Virus record (IMG/VR): IMGVR_UViG_3300008267_000012 | Length of the DNA: 64,000 bases | Origin: a virus | Lineage: Duplodnaviria > Caudoviricetes | Strand: one strand, 5' to 3' | Shown here: positions 4,695 to 60,080 of the stretch, piece after piece | Numbering within the stretch: position 1 is the stretch's first letter | Layout: each line of letters opens with the position of its first letter | Made by a program: the position numbers and the translations under genes | Notes under the pieces: generated by a model | What the model saw: only the letters and a program-made list of their open reading frames with translations | What the model was told of the DNA's origin: nothing | Database searches by the model: none

Positions 4695-4961
4695 TTAAAC
4701 ATTTTGATAACCTGCTGCTCTTTGTTTTTCAGCAAGCATCTTTTGTTGTTTTTCAAAAAGAATTGTAATTAACTTCTTACGAAGATAAACAGGTATTAAA
4801 TACATTATATCATAGTAAGAATAATTATTCTCAACAAGAAAATTAACTTCTTGTGCTATGAGTTCTTCATATTTACTTTCTTGGATAAAAAAAGTCCAAA
4901 CCGAAGGTAATTGTCTGACGAAAAAAGTCACCTGTGAATTTGCCCTCAAATTCATAATCAT
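4695..4961 (-). CDS. Tail chaperone extension (gp51-like / GT-like frameshift segment)
   Basis: Overlaps the 3' end of the gp26-like gene in the +1 frame across a T7 run (4887-4893). The portion after the run (IQESKYEELIAQEVNFL...YDIMYLIPVYLRKKLI) looks like the short helical tail-chaperone segments that precede tape-measure genes. Confidence 0.6.
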   Translation of the reverse strand: MIMNLRANSQVTFFVRQLPSVWTFFIQESKYEELIAQEVNFLVENNYSYYDIMYLIPVYLRKKLITILFEKQQKMLAEKQRAAGYQNV

Positions 4962-5658
4962 AATCTAAACCTGGTTCAATACTTAAAATATATCTTCTTA
5001 GTTCTAATGAATCTTTAGGAGGCATTAATTTTACAAACTTTTCAATAAATGGTCTATCTGTTTCACCTGCAATTGATTGAACTTGTGCAATAATTCTTTC
5101 TTGCATTTCAAAAATTGAAGTTTCATTTTTATATTTTGTAATTTTTTCAAGTCTTTGGTCTAACTTTTTCTTTTCACCATAAGTTAAAAGTTTAAATTCA
5201 ACTTTATGTTTACAAATTGGTAAATCAAACTCATATAACATATTTTGATTTGGTTTTACCAACTCTTTATATTTAATAGTTGATAAATCAATTGTAGTTT
5301 CATATGTTGAACCATTTGTATCACGAACTTGAACAGGATATTCTTCACCATAAGCAAATCTTCTTAGAAAAAGAAGTACTGCATCTAAATCACCTGATAA
5401 TAAATCTTCAACAGACATTGATGAATTAAATTCAGGGTCTTTAATTTTATTTTTTGCTAATAGTTCAATACCTGTTCCATTCTTAATATAATTTTCAGAT
5501 AAAAGATATTGTTCATCAGCAGCAGTCATATATTCCACCATTAATTTATCAATACCATTATCATAAAAATAACCTTGAGATGGTAATTCAACATAGTCAG
5601 ACACGACTTTAGGTAATAAGCTATCTAGCTTAGATTTTACATTTGATACATTTTCCAT
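4873..5658 (-). CDS. Baseplate hub assembly / tail assembly chaperone, T4 gp26-like
   Basis: Motifs VELPSQG.FY, YMTAADE..L, GDLDAVLLFLRR.AYG.EY and terminal ITFGLDFF. The start is likely MENV at 5658, because the late motif lies inside the longer ORF call. Confidence 0.75.
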   Translation of the reverse strand: MENVSNVKSKLDSLLPKVVSDYVELPSQGYFYDNGIDKLMVEYMTAADEQYLLSENYIKNGTGIELLAKNKIKDPEFNSSMSVEDLLSGDLDAVLLFLRRFAYGEEYPVQVRDTNGSTYETTIDLSTIKYKELVKPNQNMLYEFDLPICKHKVEFKLLTYGEKKKLDQRLEKITKYKNETSIFEMQERIIAQVQSIAGETDRPFIEKFVKLMPPKDSLELRRYILSIEPGLDYDYEFEGKFTGDFFRQTITFGLDFFYPRK

Positions 5659-5675
5659 AAGAGATAAAAATTTTA

Positions 5676-5696
5676 TATAAATAGTCACTATTTAAT
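5676..5696. promoter_or_regulatory. Back-to-back candidate late promoters (CTATTTATA minus / CTATTTAAT plus)
   Basis: tataaatag-tca-ctatttaat lies between the divergent genes starting at 5658(-) and 5711(+). Confidence 0.65.
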
Positions 5697-7020: not shown

Positions 7021-8424
7021 ATGAGAAAACCAAAGATTTTGATTACTAACATGGATGTTCATGGTGTAAACTTTTATCGTTCCGAACAACCTGCAATCTC
7101 TCTTTCAAAACTTTACGATGATGAATTTGAAATTGATTATATTAAAAATATAAATTGGAATGATGATGAATTTTTAAAACAATATGATGTAATTCATGGT
7201 CATAGAACGCTTTGTGATTTTGCACAAATGCCATATTTAGTTGATAAACTTCATAGTTTTGGAATTAAAGTAATTCTTGATATTGATGATTATTGGGAAG
7301 TATCAAGAGAACATCCTCTTTATCATGCTGTTAAAAAAGATAATTTAAAAGATAAGATTGTTGGTAATCTTAAAATTGTTGATGGTGTTTCAACTACAAC
7401 ATCGGTTTATGCAAATTATATTAAACCATATAATAAAAATATTTTAATTATTCCAAATGGTGTAAATAGAAATCTTAAAGAATGGATTCCTGCTGATGAT
7501 AAATGTTCTTATGAGAAATTAAGAATTCTTTATCTTGCTGGTTCATCTCACTTACAAGACGTTTCTTTATTAAAAGATAGCTTTGAAAGACTTATTGATG
7601 ACGCATCAATTAATAATAAATTTCAAGTACACCTTTCAGGGTTTGACCTTAGAGGAACAACTACAAATTATGTTGTAAATGAAGACTTTATTAAAGAACT
7701 TCAAGCAATGAATTTGTTTACTCAACAACTATATAATAAACTTGTTGCAAATAATTTTGATATTGTAAATACACCTGAAGTTCCAAGACAAATTGTTGAA
7801 AAATACAACGGTAGTGTTTTAAATGAACAAACAAGACCAATTAACCCACAAGAAACGGTTTGGACAAGATATGAAGAGATTTTTACCTCAAATTATAAAC
7901 TTATTAAAGATAAAGATTATTATGATTTTCTAATGAAGTTTGATTTGGATGCTGTTTATGAAAAACAAGCAGAACAAAACTACTTTAGACACAAAACTCA
8001 AGGTCTTTACAAATTTGCAGCAAATTATAAACATGGAGATGTAGCACTTGCACCAATTAGAGTATATGGTAAAGGTGTAATGGATGATAATCCAGATAAT
8101 CGCTATCAATTTGCTAAATCAAATCTTAAAGTAATTGAAGCAGCATTTCATAAAGTACCTGTAATTGCATCAGACGTTCCAATTTATAACCATGATAAGG
8201 ATTGGGTTGATGGAAAAAATATTTTATATATAAATCCTGATAGACAATATAAAGATTGGTATAAAAAAATTAAATATTGTATCAACAATCCAAACCACGT
8301 TAAAGATATGGGTGAAGCAGCTTATGAACTTGCTTGCAAAAGATATGACATAGATGTTCTAAGTCATATTAGGGCAGATTTTTACAGAAGTTTAGTTAAG
8401 CAAGAACAACCTGAACTAGTTTAA
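7021..8424 (+). CDS. Glycosyltransferase (GT-B, GT4-like C-terminal motif)
   Basis: ILDIDDYW, LAGSSHLQD and KSNLKVIEAAFHKVPVIASDVPIY motifs; helical C-terminus DMGEAAYELA. Confidence 0.8.
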   Translation: MRKPKILITNMDVHGVNFYRSEQPAISLSKLYDDEFEIDYIKNINWNDDEFLKQYDVIHGHRTLCDFAQMPYLVDKLHSFGIKVILDIDDYWEVSREHPLYHAVKKDNLKDKIVGNLKIVDGVSTTTSVYANYIKPYNKNILIIPNGVNRNLKEWIPADDKCSYEKLRILYLAGSSHLQDVSLLKDSFERLIDDASINNKFQVHLSGFDLRGTTTNYVVNEDFIKELQAMNLFTQQLYNKLVANNFDIVNTPEVPRQIVEKYNGSVLNEQTRPINPQETVWTRYEEIFTSNYKLIKDKDYYDFLMKFDLDAVYEKQAEQNYFRHKTQGLYKFAANYKHGDVALAPIRVYGKGVMDDNPDNRYQFAKSNLKVIEAAFHKVPVIASDVPIYNHDKDWVDGKNILYINPDRQYKDWYKKIKYCINNPNHVKDMGEAAYELACKRYDIDVLSHIRADFYRSLVKQEQPELV

Positions 8425-8789: not shown

Positions 8790-8806
8790 CTATTTATATT
8801 AAATAG
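8790..8806. promoter_or_regulatory. Overlapping divergent candidate late promoters
   Basis: ctatttatattaaatag contains the motif on both strands, between the genes starting at 8783(-) and 8815(+). Confidence 0.65.
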
Positions 8807-8814
8807 TATTTCTA

Positions 8815-10866
8815 ATGAGTTTCATACAAAAAAACGATTCAGTTATAATTAATACAAAACTGACAAATATAGGAAGACAATTACTTGCTTCAGGTAATTT
8901 AACATTTAAAAAAATTGAATTTGGGGATTCAGAAGTTGACTACAACTTCCTTAGAGATTTTGATACCACTATTGTAGGTACAGACCTTTCAATTATGCGA
9001 CCAAAAGATGCTAATCCAATTATTAAATATCCTATACCTGTTTTAGAAACAGATGCAACAGGAACAAAATCTGATATAAATAAATTAACACCCGATATTA
9101 GGTTAGTTGTTAATACAGCAAAACAAAGAGGATTTTTTACAGGGTCAACATCATTAGGTTTTACAGCATTAACATCTACTACATATATTTTAAATAAATT
9201 TAATGTAGCAACTAGTAGTGTATCAGGTGGTACAGTTTTGAATGTTCCATCTGTAACAAATATTACAGCAGGTACAATGCTTTTAATTGATTGGAGAAAT
9301 CCAGAATTAACATTTACAGATACAACAGGTACTATTGGAGAAAACTATCCAAGACAATTTCTTTGGTACAAAGTACAGTCTGTTGTAGGTAGTGCCGTTA
9401 CTGTTGATAGAGCGTTACCAAACTTTAATAACGCAATAACAGCAAATGATTCTGTTGTATATGTCTATCCACCAAATAATGCAATTGATAATTATTATAG
9501 TACAGGAACTACAGTAGCTTATTGGAATTACAATACTCTAGCATTTGATTCAACATGTAATATTGGACAAAATGATGATGTGGTTGTTTGGAATATGAAT
9601 ATTGTATATAAAGACACTCCAATTGGAGTGACTAGTGACTATACTTCACAATATTATGATGGTGCAATTTTTTCAGGATTTAAAGAATATATTCAAGGAG
9701 AAACTGATAACTCAGTAAAGTCTCAATTCGCTATAATTCACTATACAAATAAATCAATTTCAAATTATTATGGTGAAGCATTTTATAATGATACATTTAA
9801 ATTGACATTACCAACAATTATGTATCACGGTAAAAAAGATAGAACAATGGGTATTGTTTTATCAGCCTCAACTAAGAGAACAGTATTATCACTTACACTA
9901 CCAAACTTTTCTACAGAATTTTATGACCTTGTTGAAACAACCTCACAAAATGTAGTTGGCAAAGTATTTAATGATTTAAGAATCGCAGTAATTGAGGATG
10001 AAGAGTTAGTAAATGTTCTTGCACTTAAAAGTGATAGGTCACACACCTTACCACCAGCTACTTGGTCTTTAAAAAATGAATTAAGTTCCACAGATGCTTT
10101 ATTGCCACAAAATGGTAATAAATACATTGCTTTAACTTATTTATTTACAAATGAAAATATCTCCAATGGCTACAACTCAAACCGAAGCTTTGGTTTAAAT
10201 GGTGGTATTCATTGTGGATATGTTGAATATCTTTATCCAACAACTACAGAACCAAACAATGTAACCTTTTACTTTAAAGATGCTGATTTAAAATTTATGG
10301 AGTCAAATGTTACAACAAACGTAGATGGTACAGGATTTAATGTAAATAAATTTTATGTTTTAGCACAACTAGTTGATATTAATACTTTCCCAAACCCAAA
10401 AACATGGAGATTAATTGATTATACAGGTAATCTACCTGATGTTACAAACTGGACAGCAACAACAATGCCTGTAACAGCACTTACAAGTGGTTTCAATACA
10501 CTAACAAAAAGTCAATACACAGCAGCAACTATATATAATATTGAAAATTGGATTGGAACTTTACCAACCAACTTCAATTATCTTACAACACCTCAATTAG
10601 GATTTGGTGAAGAAAGTATCTTACTTGGTAATATTAATACCAATATAAAAGCTACCGTTTTTAAAACAAAAATTTCACATACTTTAGGATTTAGCAATTA
10701 TAACACATCAAACAACCCAACTTGGGATGTTGATGATGATATATATGTTACCGAAGCAGCTATTTACGACCAAAACAATTCTTTAGTTGCTGTTGGTAAA
10801 ATAAATAATCCTGTTAAAAAGAATACCAATAAATTATTTACAGTAGAATTAGATATGGATTTTTAA
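8815..10866 (+). CDS. Tail collar/fibre-base protein (DUF3751/P2 gpH N-domain-like termini with large insert)
   Basis: N-terminal KLTNIGRQLLASG..F.KIEFGDSEVDY and C-terminal YVTEAAIYDQNNSLVAVGK. The middle is Thr/Asn-rich and beta-like. Confidence 0.6.
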   Translation: MSFIQKNDSVIINTKLTNIGRQLLASGNLTFKKIEFGDSEVDYNFLRDFDTTIVGTDLSIMRPKDANPIIKYPIPVLETDATGTKSDINKLTPDIRLVVNTAKQRGFFTGSTSLGFTALTSTTYILNKFNVATSSVSGGTVLNVPSVTNITAGTMLLIDWRNPELTFTDTTGTIGENYPRQFLWYKVQSVVGSAVTVDRALPNFNNAITANDSVVYVYPPNNAIDNYYSTGTTVAYWNYNTLAFDSTCNIGQNDDVVVWNMNIVYKDTPIGVTSDYTSQYYDGAIFSGFKEYIQGETDNSVKSQFAIIHYTNKSISNYYGEAFYNDTFKLTLPTIMYHGKKDRTMGIVLSASTKRTVLSLTLPNFSTEFYDLVETTSQNVVGKVFNDLRIAVIEDEELVNVLALKSDRSHTLPPATWSLKNELSSTDALLPQNGNKYIALTYLFTNENISNGYNSNRSFGLNGGIHCGYVEYLYPTTTEPNNVTFYFKDADLKFMESNVTTNVDGTGFNVNKFYVLAQLVDINTFPNPKTWRLIDYTGNLPDVTNWTATTMPVTALTSGFNTLTKSQYTAATIYNIENWIGTLPTNFNYLTTPQLGFGEESILLGNINTNIKATVFKTKISHTLGFSNYNTSNNPTWDVDDDIYVTEAAIYDQNNSLVAVGKINNPVKKNTNKLFTVELDMDF

Positions 10867-10867
10867 T

Positions 10868-12121
10868 ATGGGTTTTATACCAAGTTCATCAACAAGGACA
10901 TTATATGCTTATTTAACACAAACAGGAAGATATAACCTTCTTTTTGGGGATTCTGCTGCTTCTAAAGTTGCAAAATTTACACTACATGATAATGATATAA
11001 ATTATGATATAGCTTCTAATATTATAAATTTTAATTACAATAAATTAGCAAGAGGTTTTGTTCCTGATATTACAGGTGATAATGATGATTGTATTAGAAG
11101 CGTTGCTCAAGCATATATTGTTGATGAGAACAGTTATTTAATTTGGGGAGGTGTACCACCATCAACACCACCTCCACCAACACCAACACCTCCAGGTTCA
11201 GGCCCACCTCCACCTGCAATTCCATATCCTATTGCAGATTTTTCAGCATCAACCAATTCAGGTCTTGTTCCATTAACAGTTGCGTTTACCGATATGTCAG
11301 TAAATATGGCAACAGATTATAACCCACTTACATGGGAATGGGATTTCCAAAATGATGGTACTGTTGATAGTACAGACCAAAATCCAACATTTACATATAA
11401 TACACCAGGTATATATGAGGTATCATTAAAAGCAAGTAATTTCTATGGTATAAATATTAAAACAAAAACTAGCTATATCAATGTTACAGCACCTGTTCTT
11501 AGAAAAATGAGAATAGAATTTGATTATCCAACCAATCTAATTAACGGAGACTCAAGTTGGGATACTGCAAGCGATTGGCTTCATAGGCAAACAGTAACAT
11601 CAACTCCACCTGCGTATAATTCTAGAACAAATTGGGTATTTGGTAGTAAAGTAATAAATCAAGGTCTAAATGGTGGTAGTAAAGACCCTAGATTTTACAT
11701 TAGATTAAAGGTTGACCCATCTGAAGCAGACCAAACATCACCAATTACACAAGCAGAAAAAGAATCCGCAACATTTACTATTAAATTAGAACAACCTTTT
11801 ACTGATTTTAATTATATAACTACTATTCAATCTACTACTTGCTATTTTAATTCTATAGGTGATACTTGTAGTTTAAGTTTTGGAACAATACCAAATCCTC
11901 TTCAGAATATTCTTACTTTTTACATTAACCAAACTTGGATTAATCAAAACTATACAACAATTAATAATAACCCAGTGGTTAATATTAATCAAATTATACA
12001 ACAACCATTTAATATAGATTTTAATTTTAAAATTGAATCTAATTCACCTAACGTGGTAATACCACCTGATAAAAACACTTATAATTATGCAGCACGATTC
12101 CAAGCATTTAGAACAGCATAA
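10868..12121 (+). CDS. Modular tail appendage protein 1 (shared anchor + Pro linker + PKD domain)
   Basis: MGFIPSSST anchor module, Pro-rich linker, then a canonical PKD domain (PIADFSAS...LTVAFTD.S...WEWDF.NDGT.DST.QNPT.TY..PG.Y.V.L). Confidence 0.7.
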   Translation: MGFIPSSSTRTLYAYLTQTGRYNLLFGDSAASKVAKFTLHDNDINYDIASNIINFNYNKLARGFVPDITGDNDDCIRSVAQAYIVDENSYLIWGGVPPSTPPPPTPTPPGSGPPPPAIPYPIADFSASTNSGLVPLTVAFTDMSVNMATDYNPLTWEWDFQNDGTVDSTDQNPTFTYNTPGIYEVSLKASNFYGINIKTKTSYINVTAPVLRKMRIEFDYPTNLINGDSSWDTASDWLHRQTVTSTPPAYNSRTNWVFGSKVINQGLNGGSKDPRFYIRLKVDPSEADQTSPITQAEKESATFTIKLEQPFTDFNYITTIQSTTCYFNSIGDTCSLSFGTIPNPLQNILTFYINQTWINQNYTTINNNPVVNINQIIQQPFNIDFNFKIESNSPNVVIPPDKNTYNYAARFQAFRTA

Positions 12122-12126
12122 ACAAT

Positions 12127-12537
12127 ATGGGATTTATACCAAGTTCATCAACACAATCAGTTAACGCTTACCTAACTCAATCAGGTAGAAAAAAGTTATT
12201 ATATTCATCAGCAAGTGAATCACAAATAACATTTTTTACTTTACATGATAATGATATAAATTATTTAATTTCATCAAAAGTTGATGACATAACTTTAACA
12301 TATAATATACTAAAAAATGGTTTTGTTCCTGATATAACAGGTGACAATGATATTTGTATTAAAAGTGTAGCACAAGCATATGAAGTTAATAAAAATAGTT
12401 ATTTAATCTATGGTGGTGATTTAGTTGTGCTTACGGCAAATACAGGAACAACAACTACAGGTCCAGGTGGTGGAACACCAGGACCAGGACCAGGCACAGG
12501 AACACCAGTAGGGGAAGAGCCACCAATAGGAGGGTAA
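12127..12537 (+). CDS. Modular tail appendage protein 2 (anchor + Gly/Pro tail only)
   Basis: Same anchor module followed only by a TTTGPGGGTPGPGPG tail; 136 aa. Confidence 0.6.
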   Translation: MGFIPSSSTQSVNAYLTQSGRKKLLYSSASESQITFFTLHDNDINYLISSKVDDITLTYNILKNGFVPDITGDNDICIKSVAQAYEVNKNSYLIYGGDLVVLTANTGTTTTGPGGGTPGPGPGTGTPVGEEPPIGG

Positions 12538-12556
12538 AATTTAACTAATTAGTAAT

Positions 12557-13363
12557 ATGGGATTTATACCAAGTTCATCAACAATACAACTTTATGCATA
12601 TTTCACCGATTATGCAAGAGAAAGAATTTTTAATGGTGATGTTCCTGATTTTGAAATTACTCAATTTAGTTTACACGATGAAGATATAGATTATCAAATT
12701 AGTAAAGTAGTTATTGGTCAAGATGCTTCAGGTTATAGCATTTTTAATACATTAAAATCAGGATTTCTACCTGATTATACAGGTGATAATGATATTTGTA
12801 TTAAAAGTAATAAAGGTATGGTTATACTTGGTAAAAACACTTTAACAGGTACAACAACTATACAAGTACCACCTACACCATCTCCAAATCCACCACCATC
12901 TCCAAATCCACCACCATCTAGTAGGTCATTAAATATTGGTTTTGCAAGTGGTACTAATACACCAATTGATGATTATGGTTCATCAGCAAATGTAAATAAA
13001 AAGAATTTTAGTTATAATTTTAATGTTGATTTAGTACAAAATATTGGTGAATCTAATCCAACATCAGCAGAAATAGCAACTACATCATTTATTATTGAAC
13101 TAGTAGAACCACCATTATCACCTGTCGTATTAAACGGAAGTGTTAAAGTTAATAATATTGCATTACCAACAACTGTAAGTTTTACTAATAATGCAACTTT
13201 AATCGCTACATTATCATTTAATAGAGATAGTACTTACAATCCAAATCCAGCAGAGATTGATTATACTGAGATAAAAATTAAATTAACATCAACAAATCCT
13301 AATAGACCAATTGACCCAACAAAATCAATATTTATATACAGAGCAAACATTTATTCGGCATAA
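12557..13363 (+). CDS. Modular tail appendage protein 3 (anchor + Pro linker + Ig-like domain)
   Basis: Same anchor module, PSPNPP x2 linker, beta-rich C-domain of about 140 aa. Confidence 0.6.
   Translation: MGFIPSSSTIQLYAYFTDYARERIFNGDVPDFEITQFSLHDEDIDYQISKVVIGQDASGYSIFNTLKSGFLPDYTGDNDICIKSNKGMVILGKNTLTGTTTIQVPPTPSPNPPPSPNPPPSSRSLNIGFASGTNTPIDDYGSSANVNKKNFSYNFNVDLVQNIGESNPTSAEIATTSFIIELVEPPLSPVVLNGSVKVNNIALPTTVSFTNNATLIATLSFNRDSTYNPNPAEIDYTEIKIKLTSTNPNRPIDPTKSIFIYRANIYSA
12878..12919 (+). repeat. 18-bp tandem repeat encoding a PSPNPP linker
   Basis: ccatctccaaatccacca x2 followed by ccatct. Confidence 0.9.
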
Positions 13364-13365
13364 CT

Positions 13366-14979
13366 ATGGGATATATAAAACAATCAGATAATAAAAAAAT
13401 ATATGCATATCTAACACAATTAGGTAAAGAAAGATTTATTACAGGTGAACTTGAAGATTTTCAAATAAAATATTTTAGCTTGCATGATGATGACATTAAT
13501 TATTATATTGCCTCTAAAAACATTAGCGCAGCAACTTATAATATACCTAAAAGCGGTTTTATATCTGATGTTACAGGTGATGATGATATATGTTTATCAA
13601 ATGTATCTGATGCAACATTATTAAAAAATAAATTAATTTATTTCCCACCAATAGTTGTACCACCAGGAGAATTTGCTGTTTTTACTTCTTGTACAGACAC
13701 TATTGGTAATGAAAGATTTAGTATTACCGTTTATAAAGACCCTGCTCCGCAAGGTTACTCTTGGTTTGTAACAATAGATACAATATCTTTTCCAAATTCA
13801 GATTCAACAATTGATGATGTTATAATAATATCAACAGAAGATAGTGAAAAATATCCACTTAATAGTAATCCTGTATCTTTTAACGCAAGTATGAAAAGAA
13901 CTGTATCGGATGGAAGCGGTGGATTCACTACTGTACTATTAGGTGAAGATTTCTTTCCAAGAGCAGGAGATGCGTATAATTTTACAGTAAAAGTAGTTAA
14001 TGATAATACAGATGAAATTGTGTTTACTAAAGAATTTAAAGACATAAATTGCTCAAAGAAATTATTTGCAATTGGTGTTATCCACCCAGATGATTTAGCT
14101 GCAAGTGATAATAGTGATTATACATATAATTCACCAATGCCTGTAGAGGATTTCATTCCTCTTCTTCCTGATATTAAATTATCAAGAACAAAAACAGGTA
14201 TTGCTCTTTGGGTTATTGATAATGGGAACAGAAGAAGGGATTTAAATTTCACACAAGAAGATTTAGACAAAGATTTAACTGTTAATAGGAGTTTTAATAA
14301 TTTTTTTCTAGACCTTAATACTCAATACGGTAACAGTCTTGGATATACTTATTTTCCGCAAGCAGCAGGACCTGCACAAATATTAACTGTAGGTAGTTTA
14401 TCTCAAAGTGCAATATCAATTGATTGGTTTGATAATAATACAAATGATTACTATCCAAATATAAGTGCTGATAGAGCAATTACTAGACCCTCTTTCATAA
14501 GATTTGATTTAAATGACCAATCGGATTGGTGGAATGGTGGTTATTCACCAGGTACTACTTATGATGATGCATATCAAGCAGTAAGACCACAAAATTACAA
14601 TGGTAATTCATTTACAGAAAAATTTTGCACCTTACACCCAACTGTTAAAATATTTAATGATTGGAAAAATGGTGCGGAAGGGTTTACTTTTAGATACTAC
14701 GAAATAGCATTAAGAGCCGAAAATTATCCACTTCAATCTTATGTAAGCACAATACCCAAAAAAGCTGGGACCACATATAATCATTTTTTAGCAACAAATG
14801 GTATAGGACCATCAGAAACTAGAATCGTTGGTAATACTTATGGTGGTACTGATATTGGTTCTGATTTAGTTAATGGTACTTATCAAAATGTAGGCGAATC
14901 TACAGCGGTATTTGAGTTTAGTTATTGCGTAAACCTTGTAGGTAATTATCTATGTTGTTTCTGGCCACAGCCTTGCTAA
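13366..14979 (+). CDS. Modular tail appendage protein 4 (anchor + large unique domain)
   Basis: MGYIKQSDNKKIYAYLTQLGK...FSLHDDDINY...GFISDVTGDDDICL anchor, then about 430 aa of unrelated Asp/Tyr/Trp-rich sequence ending CCFWPQPC. Confidence 0.6.
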   Translation: MGYIKQSDNKKIYAYLTQLGKERFITGELEDFQIKYFSLHDDDINYYIASKNISAATYNIPKSGFISDVTGDDDICLSNVSDATLLKNKLIYFPPIVVPPGEFAVFTSCTDTIGNERFSITVYKDPAPQGYSWFVTIDTISFPNSDSTIDDVIIISTEDSEKYPLNSNPVSFNASMKRTVSDGSGGFTTVLLGEDFFPRAGDAYNFTVKVVNDNTDEIVFTKEFKDINCSKKLFAIGVIHPDDLAASDNSDYTYNSPMPVEDFIPLLPDIKLSRTKTGIALWVIDNGNRRRDLNFTQEDLDKDLTVNRSFNNFFLDLNTQYGNSLGYTYFPQAAGPAQILTVGSLSQSAISIDWFDNNTNDYYPNISADRAITRPSFIRFDLNDQSDWWNGGYSPGTTYDDAYQAVRPQNYNGNSFTEKFCTLHPTVKIFNDWKNGAEGFTFRYYEIALRAENYPLQSYVSTIPKKAGTTYNHFLATNGIGPSETRIVGNTYGGTDIGSDLVNGTYQNVGESTAVFEFSYCVNLVGNYLCCFWPQPC

Positions 14980-14990
14980 TAATAAATCAA

Positions 14991-14999
14991 CTATTTATA
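14991..14999 (+). promoter_or_regulatory. Candidate late promoter CTATTTATA
   Basis: Motif 13 nt upstream of the ATG at 15013. Confidence 0.65.
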
Positions 15000-15012
15000 A
15001 TAAAAAAATATC

Positions 15013-16440
15013 ATGGCAATAGAATTAGGATTAAAAGCAATTGAAGCGTCAGCAGGTTTTAGAAAACAACCATATACGAACAGTTCAAATTTGTATGGTG
15101 ATAAATTATTATACACTTATGCAGAAAAAAGTTTAAAATCAACACCATATGGAAATTTATTTAAATCTTTTAACTTCCCGATTACAGTTGCAGAAAAAAA
15201 TGACTATACCACAAGATATGGTAATACAGCTTTAAAATGGTTAGATGTTGATAAAATAATTGTTATTGAAATACCGAAAGGTGAATATGGCGAATTAATT
15301 GATGGTAAAACATTTCAACTAACCCTTCCTGTTATACTAAATGGTGTTGAAACAGCCACAACTGTTTATGGAACATATTTTGGTTATGATGGTACAAATG
15401 CTATTAGTTTTCTTGGTAATGAGTTAAATAAAAGAAAAACCGAAAGAAATCCAAGTTATTTTGGTTTTGAACCAACTCAAGATAATGAATTCAATACAAA
15501 TGTGACTTTTTTATATTGTAATGATATTGCACCACCAAAAGATAAAGGAGACCAAATTACCGTTTTAACAGCAACAACTGTTACAATAACAGGTGATATT
15601 AGTAGTAAATTTATTTTTACTAGTGTAACACTTAATTCAAATGAAACAGTAAAAGTTAATTATACTTTAACAAATACCACTCTTGTAGACGATGTTGTAA
15701 TTGATGTTCAAAGTTTTCAATTGGCATCAGCTAATAATAAAAATGTTTTTAAAACAATAACTCAAGCTGGTATTGTATCAGTAAACGTAACTGCATATTT
15801 AATAAATCAAAGTGGACAAAATCCACCACAACCAAAAGAAATTACAATAACTATTGAAAAACAACAATCAGTTAATAATTTATCTTGGAATGTTTGGTCA
15901 GCAAATAATAAATTTCCAAAAACTGAGGGTGATGAAGGGCAAAAAATATATGCAGCATATGATAGTGTTAAATCAAATGGTGTTGTAATACCTGGTTTTG
16001 ACAAACCTGTAGGTATTTTATATCAAGATAAGGGTTTTGCTGTAATTACTGATTCAACTTTAGTAACAAATTTTAGGTATACGGCAGGTACTAGCACAGG
16101 GTTTAATAGCATTCCATCAGGTTCTCCATATAATGGTGATAATAACTTTGCTAAAATATTTTTTTCAACTCCAGGTATATCAAATTCTCAATTTGAGTCA
16201 CTTACAACTGAATTTGAGCAAAATATTGTTTGTCTTGCAAACGCAGGTGAATTTGTATCAACAACAAATTCAACATTTGAGGGTGCATATGAAGATGATG
16301 CTAATGAAAAACCTGTATTTATTACATCAATAGGTTTATATAATGCAGCAGGTGAATTAATTGGTATAGGAAAATTAAGTGAACCTGTTAAAAAACTACC
16401 AACTACTGTTGTACCATTCAATATTAGATTAGTAGTATAA
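15013..16440 (+). CDS. Tail collar/fibre-base protein with gpH-like C-terminal motif
   Basis: The C-terminal FITSIGLYNAAGELIGIGKLSEPVKK is homologous to the C-terminus of 8815..10866. Confidence 0.55.
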   Translation: MAIELGLKAIEASAGFRKQPYTNSSNLYGDKLLYTYAEKSLKSTPYGNLFKSFNFPITVAEKNDYTTRYGNTALKWLDVDKIIVIEIPKGEYGELIDGKTFQLTLPVILNGVETATTVYGTYFGYDGTNAISFLGNELNKRKTERNPSYFGFEPTQDNEFNTNVTFLYCNDIAPPKDKGDQITVLTATTVTITGDISSKFIFTSVTLNSNETVKVNYTLTNTTLVDDVVIDVQSFQLASANNKNVFKTITQAGIVSVNVTAYLINQSGQNPPQPKEITITIEKQQSVNNLSWNVWSANNKFPKTEGDEGQKIYAAYDSVKSNGVVIPGFDKPVGILYQDKGFAVITDSTLVTNFRYTAGTSTGFNSIPSGSPYNGDNNFAKIFFSTPGISNSQFESLTTEFEQNIVCLANAGEFVSTTNSTFEGAYEDDANEKPVFITSIGLYNAAGELIGIGKLSEPVKKLPTTVVPFNIRLVV

Positions 16441-35011: not shown

Positions 35012-35026
35012 TTTATAATAGTTTAT

Positions 35027-35035
35027 TATAAATAG
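35027..35035 (-). promoter_or_regulatory. Candidate late promoter CTATTTATA (sheath)
   Basis: Motif 15 nt upstream of the sheath ATG. Confidence 0.65.
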
Positions 35036-47394: not shown

Positions 47395-47413
47395 TTTATT
47401 ATAAATAGTAAAT

Positions 47414-49220: not shown

Positions 49221-49245
49221 AATTTTTTAATGTTTTTTAATTTAA

Positions 49246-49254
49246 TTTAAATAG
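49246..49254 (-). promoter_or_regulatory. Candidate late promoter CTATTTAAA (capsid)
   Basis: Motif 25 nt upstream of the MCP ATG. Confidence 0.6.
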
Positions 49255-52786: not shown

Positions 52787-52820
52787 TTTTTTTAGTGTTT
52801 AATATAAATAGTATAAATTA

Positions 52821-60060: not shown

Positions 60061-60069
60061 CTATTTATA
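60061..60069 (+). promoter_or_regulatory. Candidate late promoter CTATTTATA
   Basis: 11 nt upstream of the ATG at 60081. Confidence 0.65.
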
Positions 60070-60080
60070 ATAAAAATAAT

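Follow-up and report, generated by a model that had tools for sequence, protein, structure and literature searches.

Four consecutive genes in a viral genome begin with the same protein module and continue into different distal parts, raising the question of what the shared module attaches to and how the parts behind it are exchanged. The genes lie within the 64,000-nucleotide (nt) stretch of DNA analyzed here (IMG/VR record IMGVR_UViG_3300008267_000012, Caudoviricetes; hereafter the window). Our preferred answer, to which we give a probability of about 55%, is that the four proteins are adaptors of the tail or baseplate periphery that dock by completing a beta-barrel in trans and that carry exchangeable distal domains (payloads). 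The four co-directional open reading frames (ORFs) described by a first-pass annotation were confirmed; all stop with TAA and follow one another in different frames with gaps of 1-20 nt. The genes and their parts, with clades and payload families as defined below, are as follows.

10868-12121, plus strand: gene 1, 417 amino acids (aa)
10868-11155: gene 1 anchor, clade I, residues 1-96
11228-11485: gene 1 PKD domain, residues 121-206 (PF18911, E 9e-11)
Gene 1, residues ~260-417: distal domain homologous to the gene 3 payload
12127-12537, plus strand: gene 2, 136 aa, a clade I anchor followed by a 36-aa Gly/Pro/Thr tail, with no payload
12557-13363, plus strand: gene 3, 268 aa
12557-12850: gene 3 anchor, clade II, residues 1-98
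12929-13360: gene 3 payload, an immunoglobulin (Ig)-like sandwich, residues 125-268
13366-14979, plus strand: gene 4, 537 aa, with a family C payload of ~430 aa that ends in a Cys-rich tail
13366-13641: gene 4 anchor, clade III, residues 1-92

The shared N-terminal module, here called the anchor, had been described as ending in GF.PD.TGD.D.CI. We find that it covers the first ~95 residues, over which the four proteins are 41-66% identical with 24 invariant columns, including the motif G-F-x-P-D-x-T-G-D-x-D-x-C, a degree of sequence similarity that is far beyond chance. As the annotation had also noted, each anchor is followed by a Pro- or Gly/Pro-rich linker (the Pro-rich PPSTPPPPTPTPPGSGPPPPA in gene 1 and PPTPSPNPPPSPNPPPSS in gene 3, and the short PPIVVPPG in gene 4) and then by a variable C-terminus. 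The contents assigned to these C-termini, namely a PKD plus a further domain, nothing, an Ig-like domain, and ~430 unique aa, were all borne out. The PKD domain of gene 1 (PF18911/PF00801) scores 42.1 bits against a curated cut-off of 27. The AlphaFold2 (AF2) model of the gene 3 payload has a predicted local distance difference test score (pLDDT) of ~90, and its structural matches in VIA include a putative carbohydrate-binding protein of Bacteroides (Z 10.1, root-mean-square deviation (rmsd) 3.0, 117 residues aligned), Calx-beta domains (Z 9-10), and CFA/I pilins (Z 8.5). For the ~430-aa payload of gene 4 there was no Pfam or PHROG match, and in the ESM Atlas the protein falls only into unnamed viral clusters with a poor model (pLDDT 0.33). 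The claim that the payloads are unrelated held in part: the domains differ among the genes, but the distal domain of gene 1 is homologous to the gene 3 payload (hhalign probability 96.7%, E 4.6e-10, 127 columns, using payload-only profiles). The PKD and Ig-like payloads are compatible with adhesins, and from these domain types we infer adhesion to the host or the environment.

What the anchors might attach to is suggested by the genes around them. The four genes sit in the baseplate cluster, with genes for a 683-aa and a 475-aa protein on either side, and the parts of these two proteins that concern the anchor are as follows.

8815-10866, plus strand: 683-aa protein, predicted to hold a complete docking barrel
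8830-8964, plus strand: N-half of that barrel, residues ~6-50
10630-10863, plus strand: C-half of that barrel, residues ~606-683
15013-16440, plus strand: 475-aa protein, predicted to hold the C-half of the barrel only
16207-16437: C-half in the 475-aa protein, residues 399-475

The AF2 model of the 683-aa protein, built from a 64-sequence alignment, has a pLDDT of 84 and a predicted TM-score (pTM) of 0.79. Structural matches to this model comprise 92-133 residues and span positions 6 to 683, so the N- and C-terminal ends form one domain that encloses large insertions. The matches include a tail chain of HFTV1 (9h4p_BD; Z 10.4, rmsd 2.5, 118 residues aligned), the phi812 baseplate (9euf_b; Z 7.1), and the fiber-tail adaptor of GP4 (8jou_a; Z 6.6), which cover 111-118 residues, and further a KP1 baseplate protein, an Sf14 neck protein, and phiKZ gp139. 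With matches of the tail and baseplate type at moderate Z, the modeled fold class hints at function but does not prove it. The whole model gave no Foldseek match below E 1e-3 in PDB or Swiss-Prot, where the only hits were local ones to an inserted barrel, and BFVD returned uncharacterized phage proteins. In the ESM Atlas, both the 683-aa and the 475-aa proteins fall only into unnamed viral clusters, and the 475-aa model there is poor (pLDDT 0.47). Pfam and PHROG scans of the anchors and of both flanking proteins found nothing except PKD, even at E<=10 on cut pieces, and searches of PDB sequences with the anchor and 683 profiles gave chance-level rows or none.

Profile comparisons link the three kinds of protein. 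The last ~75 residues of the 475-aa protein match the last ~70 of the 683-aa protein (hhalign probability 95.6%, E 1e-8), and the 475-aa protein shows no anchor-like N-terminus when compared with the anchor profile. At the other end, the first 50 anchor residues can be aligned, beginning at residue 1, to residues 1-47 of the 683-aa protein (hhalign E 4.5e-4, probability 33%), and the anchor profile matches the 683 N-terminus at E 9e-5 in the window and at 2.6e-7 to 2.3e-4 in five whole contigs. The 683-aa family is large, with at least 575 homologous loci in IMG/VR. In two of its members (L013, 9001-11088; L058, 9001-11037), the homologue reads as two adjoining ORFs (434+259 aa and 432+241 aa, respectively), for which a frameshift, a sequencing error, and a genuine split are candidate causes.

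We then asked how anchor and C-half are arranged in relatives. The best 80 of the at least 575 stretches found by the 683-family search yielded 78 distinct loci, and 83 distinct loci were scanned with profiles of the anchor, the 683-aa protein, and the 475-aa protein. At 55 of the 83 loci, the gene that follows the 683 homologue encodes one ~400-aa protein composed of an anchor (residues 1 to ~85), a 475-like body, and the C-half; at L017, for example, the anchor covers residues 1-84 and the 475-like parts residues 95-256, 262-316, and 320-399. Another 16 loci are split, with 1-4 anchor-only genes and a C-only gene. What is encoded as separate genes in the window is thus one polypeptide at the same position in most of these relatives, which is classical evidence that the two parts work together physically. 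A further variant is an 837-aa chain (L012) in which a 230-aa insert, unrelated to the payloads of the window, stands between anchor and 475-like part. In a tree of 683 homologues made with a quick method and a provisional midpoint root, one large clade is entirely fused, and the split forms lie opposite it and in one further clade.

Prediction of the complex points the same way. With alignments of 49 rows for the 475-aa protein and 146 usable rows for the anchor, the pair reached an ipSAE of 0.62, compared with 0.00 for the best of three controls; 58 of 80 solved complexes and 2 of 110 mismatched pairs score this high. Three runs shared at least 69% of contacts, with a partner pLDDT of at least 54. 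The predicted interface joins anchor residues 6-50 to residues 399-475 and 3-18 of the 475-aa protein, where strand 34-40 pairs with 437-445 and 14-17 with 450-453, and it includes the invariant anchor residues Y15, T17, F37, L39, D41, D43, and Y46. This predicted interface is the one that a split barrel foresees, and it supports the geometry rather than binding in the cell. In the AF2 model of gene 3 by itself, the anchor shows little order (pLDDT 56-82) and lacks its first strand.

Taken together, these observations suggest the following arrangement. Each array protein would begin with an adaptor of ~95 aa, continue into a flexible Pro/Gly-rich linker, and end in a distal domain, and the first ~50 residues of the adaptor (strand-helix-strand-helix) would be the N-half of a beta-barrel docking domain. 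The 683-aa paralogue would hold both halves of this barrel in one chain and the 475-aa protein the C-half only, so that an adaptor could dock by completing the 475-aa half-barrel in trans and several payloads would hang on one common scaffold, a role that we propose for the 475-aa protein. A single split of a structural gene followed by duplications could then have produced a variable multi-gene repertoire, and the array would evolve as genes are duplicated or lost and as all that lies beyond adaptor residue ~100 is replaced. Physical docking is suggested by the modeled complex and by gene-fusion logic, and location in the virion by gene context, a promoter motif described below, and the fold matches.

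Several points weigh against this reading. The match of the anchor to the 683 N-terminus, at an hhalign probability of 33%, is weak as a single comparison; Z scores of 6-10 lie in a range where generic beta-barrels also score; and the complex score could arise because the model tends to complete a barrel known to it from one-chain proteins, a likeness through which the halves of split proteins often pass this kind of test. Four adaptors in the window, and 1-4 elsewhere, would share one partner, a stoichiometry that is unexplained. The three anchor clades have been kept apart over evolution, which hints at non-equivalent sites or an added partner. The predicted interface leaves out the conserved GFxPDxTGDxDxC half of the anchor, purely structural roles are also common for PKD and Ig-like domains, and a tblastn search of 50,697 isolate phage records with the 683-aa protein found no cultured relative.

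Some of these points would be natural if the array were instead a classical multi-fiber set, in which each protein forms homo-oligomers, probably trimers, the anchors attach directly to a different baseplate component (for example the 683-aa protein or a wedge protein), and the 475-aa protein is no more than a further paralogue. A conserved N-terminal anchor with a variable distal part is the usual design of receptor-binding proteins (PMC6872550), three position-kept clades fit three distinct sites, and an anchor half that stays clear of the 475-aa protein is expected there. We nevertheless consider this unlikely, since anchor and 475-like body are one polypeptide at 55 of 83 loci, the anchor has none of the C-half strands with which the 683 barrel is completed and models poorly alone, and the payloads are not coiled coils or beta-helices but small Ig/PKD domains of monomer type, carried on Pro-rich linkers.

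The annotation had proposed a plug-in repertoire that a fixed, invariant set of payloads in relatives would argue against. We compared the flanks of seven IMG/VR loci obtained by an anchor-profile search. The 683-aa homologue is 64-72% identical in the five closest loci and the 475-aa homologue 49-64% identical, and between these flanks the number of anchor genes is 4, 3, 3, 3 (plus a 90-aa fragment), 3, 1, and 1. Nine split relatives of the window's own clade likewise carry 1, 3, or 4 anchor genes between conserved flanks. A tree of 22 anchors resolves three clades that follow position, with clade I in the first position or positions (support 96/97), clade II in the middle (92/86), and clade III last (98/93).

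Payloads are distributed more freely than anchors. Among 130 payloads, which form 34 groups (12 with several members and 22 singletons), the AB family occurs 10 times on clade I anchors and 8 times on clade II, family D occurs 6 times on clade II and 7 times on clade III, and family C has 16 members, 14 of them on clade III anchors and the rest unassigned. A loose single-linkage merge of families A, B, and D was rejected because it was partly driven by Pro-rich linkers; under stricter clustering D separates, and the link between A and B survives comparison of payload-only profiles. The exchange can be located on individual pairs. Gene 3, with a family B payload, is sister to L001_10213, with a family D payload (support 98/92), and the two proteins are 76% identical over residues 1-98 and then unrelated; for gene 4 and L002_9715, identity is 69% over residues 1-111, with no relationship beyond. 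An identity that ends abruptly at residue ~98-111 is the mark left when the whole part beyond the anchor is replaced. Relatives therefore hold 1-4 adaptors with reshuffled payloads that cross clades, as expected from gene duplication and loss combined with distal replacement. The repertoire itself thus stands, with variable gene number, reshuffled payloads, and breakpoints at the 3′ end of the anchor, but the DNA site proposed for the swapping does not.

That site was the nearly identical DNA with which genes 1-3 begin. The repeat is real: genes 2 and 3 share 27 identical nt from the ATG, and gene 1 differs by one base. If it were the place where payloads are swapped between genes and genomes, synonymous identity should be raised, and within the window this is so (the same codon is used at 22 of 24 identical residues in codons 1-9 versus 79 of 122 elsewhere; Fisher p 0.008). 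Unequal crossing-over between gene starts could also generate a variable number of genes. Across the 22 anchors, however, the excess is small (0.75 in codons 1-9 versus 0.67 elsewhere), the breakpoints fall after residue ~98-111 and not at the gene start, and the longest exact repeats between paralogues, at 22-27 nt, are short for efficient homologous exchange. The 5′ stretch also recurs at the starts of orthologues in distant genomes, including one whose protein is 36% identical (L007). It looks like a constraint on the peptide MGFIPSSST or on the mRNA initiation region rather than a recent conversion tract, and a role as a swap site is improbable; at most, it could mediate occasional duplication or loss of whole genes.

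We also made several observations on array structure in individual relatives. At L004, 7151-7423 is a 90-aa ORF whose match to a clade I anchor stops after the first ~57 residues, followed by a gap of ~580 nt without a long ORF, and it looks like a broken first array gene. A Cys-flanked repeat motif, C-T-D-P-x-A-x-N-Y-N...D-G-S-C, follows the anchor in proteins of several relatives, as in L002 (9715-11094, residues ~100-150) and in the consensus of payload family B; it appears to be an alternative linker to the Pro-rich stretches. In a separate split lineage (L066, L074, and L084; 11413-16631), anchor proteins of 1111-1145 aa and 558-564 aa precede a C-only gene of 368-390 aa, and the split design can therefore carry large payloads too.

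Beyond these loci, a profile of the 22 anchors matched 343 cluster representatives at E<=1e-3, and 146 at E<=1e-10, among 1.84 billion proteins. The matches begin nearly always at residue 1 of proteins that are 49-863 aa long. One candidate, P0068 (863 aa, 10 stretches), was set aside as a repeat protein that matches the D-x-T-G-x-x-D-x-C motif only. Among 104 longer members, DUF5977 was found in 15, and PKD, InlB-type B-repeat, LapA, and intein/HINT domains (PF14890, PF07591) in 2 each, and the rest gave no match. In five whole contigs (93-313 kb, one of them 96% complete), the anchors are confined to this locus. Anchors without a payload recur, as in gene 2, L002 (96 aa), and L004 (134 aa), and their ratios of nonsynonymous to synonymous substitution (dN/dS), 0.25-0.53, are in the same range as those of payload-bearing anchors (0.16-0.53 overall). 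The payload-less anchors are probably functional; gene 2 itself may be a blank plug or a truncated copy.

The genome that carries the array is, by its gene content, that of an uncultured and very divergent T4-like myovirus. The window has a G+C content of ~28% and no tRNA genes, and it encodes the following proteins that place it among T4-like phages.

gp23-type major capsid protein: PF07068, 5e-69
T4-type portal: PF07230, 1e-67
large terminase: PF03237, 8e-9
contractile sheath: PF17482, 1e-9
gp25 baseplate wedge protein: PF04965, 7e-11

A profile match was thus obtained for each of these hallmark proteins, and a prohead protease and a gp26-like hub protein are encoded as well. The capsid protein is only 31% identical to that of the nearest isolate. 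Among isolate phages, gene 1 was matched through its PKD domain only. The longest contig bearing the 683-aa protein is 244 kb. Along the window, the gp26-like gene is followed by a 293-aa gene, gp25, a glycosyltransferase, the 683-aa gene, genes 1-4, the 475-aa gene, and DNA-metabolism genes. The glycosyltransferase-like gene (467 aa, 7021-8424, plus strand; phrog_7162, E 2e-28) is ~90% identical across relatives, and the Ser/Thr/Pro-rich linkers of the adjoining array proteins could be targets of its product.

A motif, CTATTTATWWTAAA, is found in 20 copies in the window, compared with 2.2 expected, and is probably the late promoter of this phage group. Copies lie directly upstream of the genes for the capsid, the sheath, and other structural proteins, with example sites at 35022-35035 (minus), 49241-49254 (minus), 47395-47408 (minus), 52798-52811 (minus), and 60061-60074 (plus), and upstream of both genes that flank the array.

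8790-8803, plus strand: late-promoter-like motif CTATTTATATTAAA, ahead of the 683-aa gene
14991-15004, plus strand: second late-promoter-like motif CTATTTATAATAAA, ahead of the 475-aa gene

The motif upstream of the 683-aa gene is kept in relatives, and no copy lies inside the four-gene array. With a motif before the 683-aa gene and none within the array, the array is most simply a late transcript that continues from the 683-aa gene, and the 683-aa gene and genes 1-4 are probably driven as one unit from 8790-8803. Another copy (5671-5684, minus) falls in the first codons of the gp26-like ORF 4873-5688, which was called from a GTG; its true start is probably further downstream. The six genes of 8790-16440 have A/T-rich upstream regions without a purine-rich, Shine-Dalgarno-like stretch, and their stop and start codons are tightly spaced (e.g. 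TAA-T-ATG from the 683-aa gene to gene 1), which suggests coupled or Shine-Dalgarno-independent initiation.

That the proteins are not in the particle at all, acting as intracellular assembly helpers for the 475-aa or 683-aa protein or as decoys, or that some copies such as gene 2 are decaying, is the least probable alternative: gene 2 and its counterparts in L002 and L004 lack a payload and L004 holds the 90-aa fragment of a further copy, but the anchors, payload-less ones included, have dN/dS of 0.16-0.53, the genes lie in a late structural transcription unit, PKD/Ig-like domains on Pro-rich linkers are typical of exposed surface proteins, and fusion to a protein with tail/baseplate-type domains is common.

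Barrel completion in trans can be compared with known ways of building phage surfaces. In T4, Hoc is an Ig-like decoration of the capsid, encoded by a single gene and thought to give weak adhesion to surfaces or glycans. Ig/PKD-type domains are common to both, displayed on the particle surface in Hoc and putatively also in the array; however, the array is a variable multi-gene set in the baseplate cluster. For the joint, the nearest mechanistic analogue is the donor-strand complementation of chaperone-usher pili, in which an incomplete beta-sandwich is finished by strands from another chain to give a stable non-covalent joint. The proteins are unrelated and serve assembly of a bacterial pilus, and here the predicted donor is a strand-helix-strand-helix segment of ~45 residues and not one strand.

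The motifs of the array locus also look like those of the N-terminal domain of P2 gpH-type fibers (PF12571), with an N-terminal segment T-x-x-G-R/K...G-D and a C-terminal segment G-L-Y-D...L-x-A-x-G-K, a likeness that does not amount to membership. Hidden Markov model (HMM) searches gave no PF12571 match at E<=10 for six pieces of window proteins or in six-frame translations of contigs of two relatives (170 and 129 kb), and no P2-type fiber was among the structural matches in PDB, BFVD, or Swiss-Prot, searches for which a split domain is hard.

Among anchor-and-branch receptor-binding systems, examples are CBA120 TSP1-4, G7C gp66/gp63.1, and phiKp24. The Klebsiella phages KP32, K11, and KP34 have such systems too (PMC6872550). 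In these, as here, neighboring genes share a conserved N-terminal attachment part, the distal parts can be exchanged, a single protein acts (here putatively) as platform for docking the others, and the repertoire differs between related phages. A shared conserved anchor with exchangeable distal domains, the hallmark of anchor-and-branch systems, is what we find in the array. The known systems, however, dock through branching domains like those of T4 gp10 or through a short conserved peptide, and their payloads are trimeric tailspikes or depolymerases, whereas the array has small Ig/PKD payloads on Pro-rich linkers and an anchor, outside any Pfam or PHROG family, that is apparently half of a split beta-barrel. 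No gp10-like branching domain or docking peptide was found: the anchors lack any such Pfam/PHROG match, and T4 baseplate proteins are absent from the 50 best structural matches of the 683 model. The array design thus appears to be a variant of the anchor-and-branch systems in which the joint is a barrel split over two genes.

Of the structures matched by the 683 barrel, 9h4p_BD is probably the HFTV1 baseplate hub gp44 (PMC12494034), judging by its length of 953 aa. Its matched domain is interrupted by a long insertion, like that of the 683-aa protein, and the adaptor barrels of HFTV1, phi812, and GP4 have no sequence similarity to the 683-aa protein. We know of none of these barrels that is split over two genes.

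Exchangeable distal parts on conserved anchors are a familiar theme in phage host recognition, and the known docking devices are few and come from cultured phages of few hosts. The anchors described here form an unnamed family, found at the N-terminus of proteins from one locus in a widespread group of uncultured T4-like phages. Since one-gene and two-gene forms of the docking domain both occur in nature, they provide a testable picture of the joint. If barrel completion in trans is correct, it would amount to a new way of attaching tail accessories and possibly provide a compact natural tag-and-dock pair for phage display. More tentatively, the system may be a natural split-domain plug-in, in which a half-barrel scaffold takes any of several adaptor halves with different surface domains, and the three adaptor clades may fill non-equivalent positions on a trimeric scaffold. 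One phage could then equip its particles with adhesins in mixed or switchable sets, and payloads could be added, dropped, or swapped without touching the baseplate.

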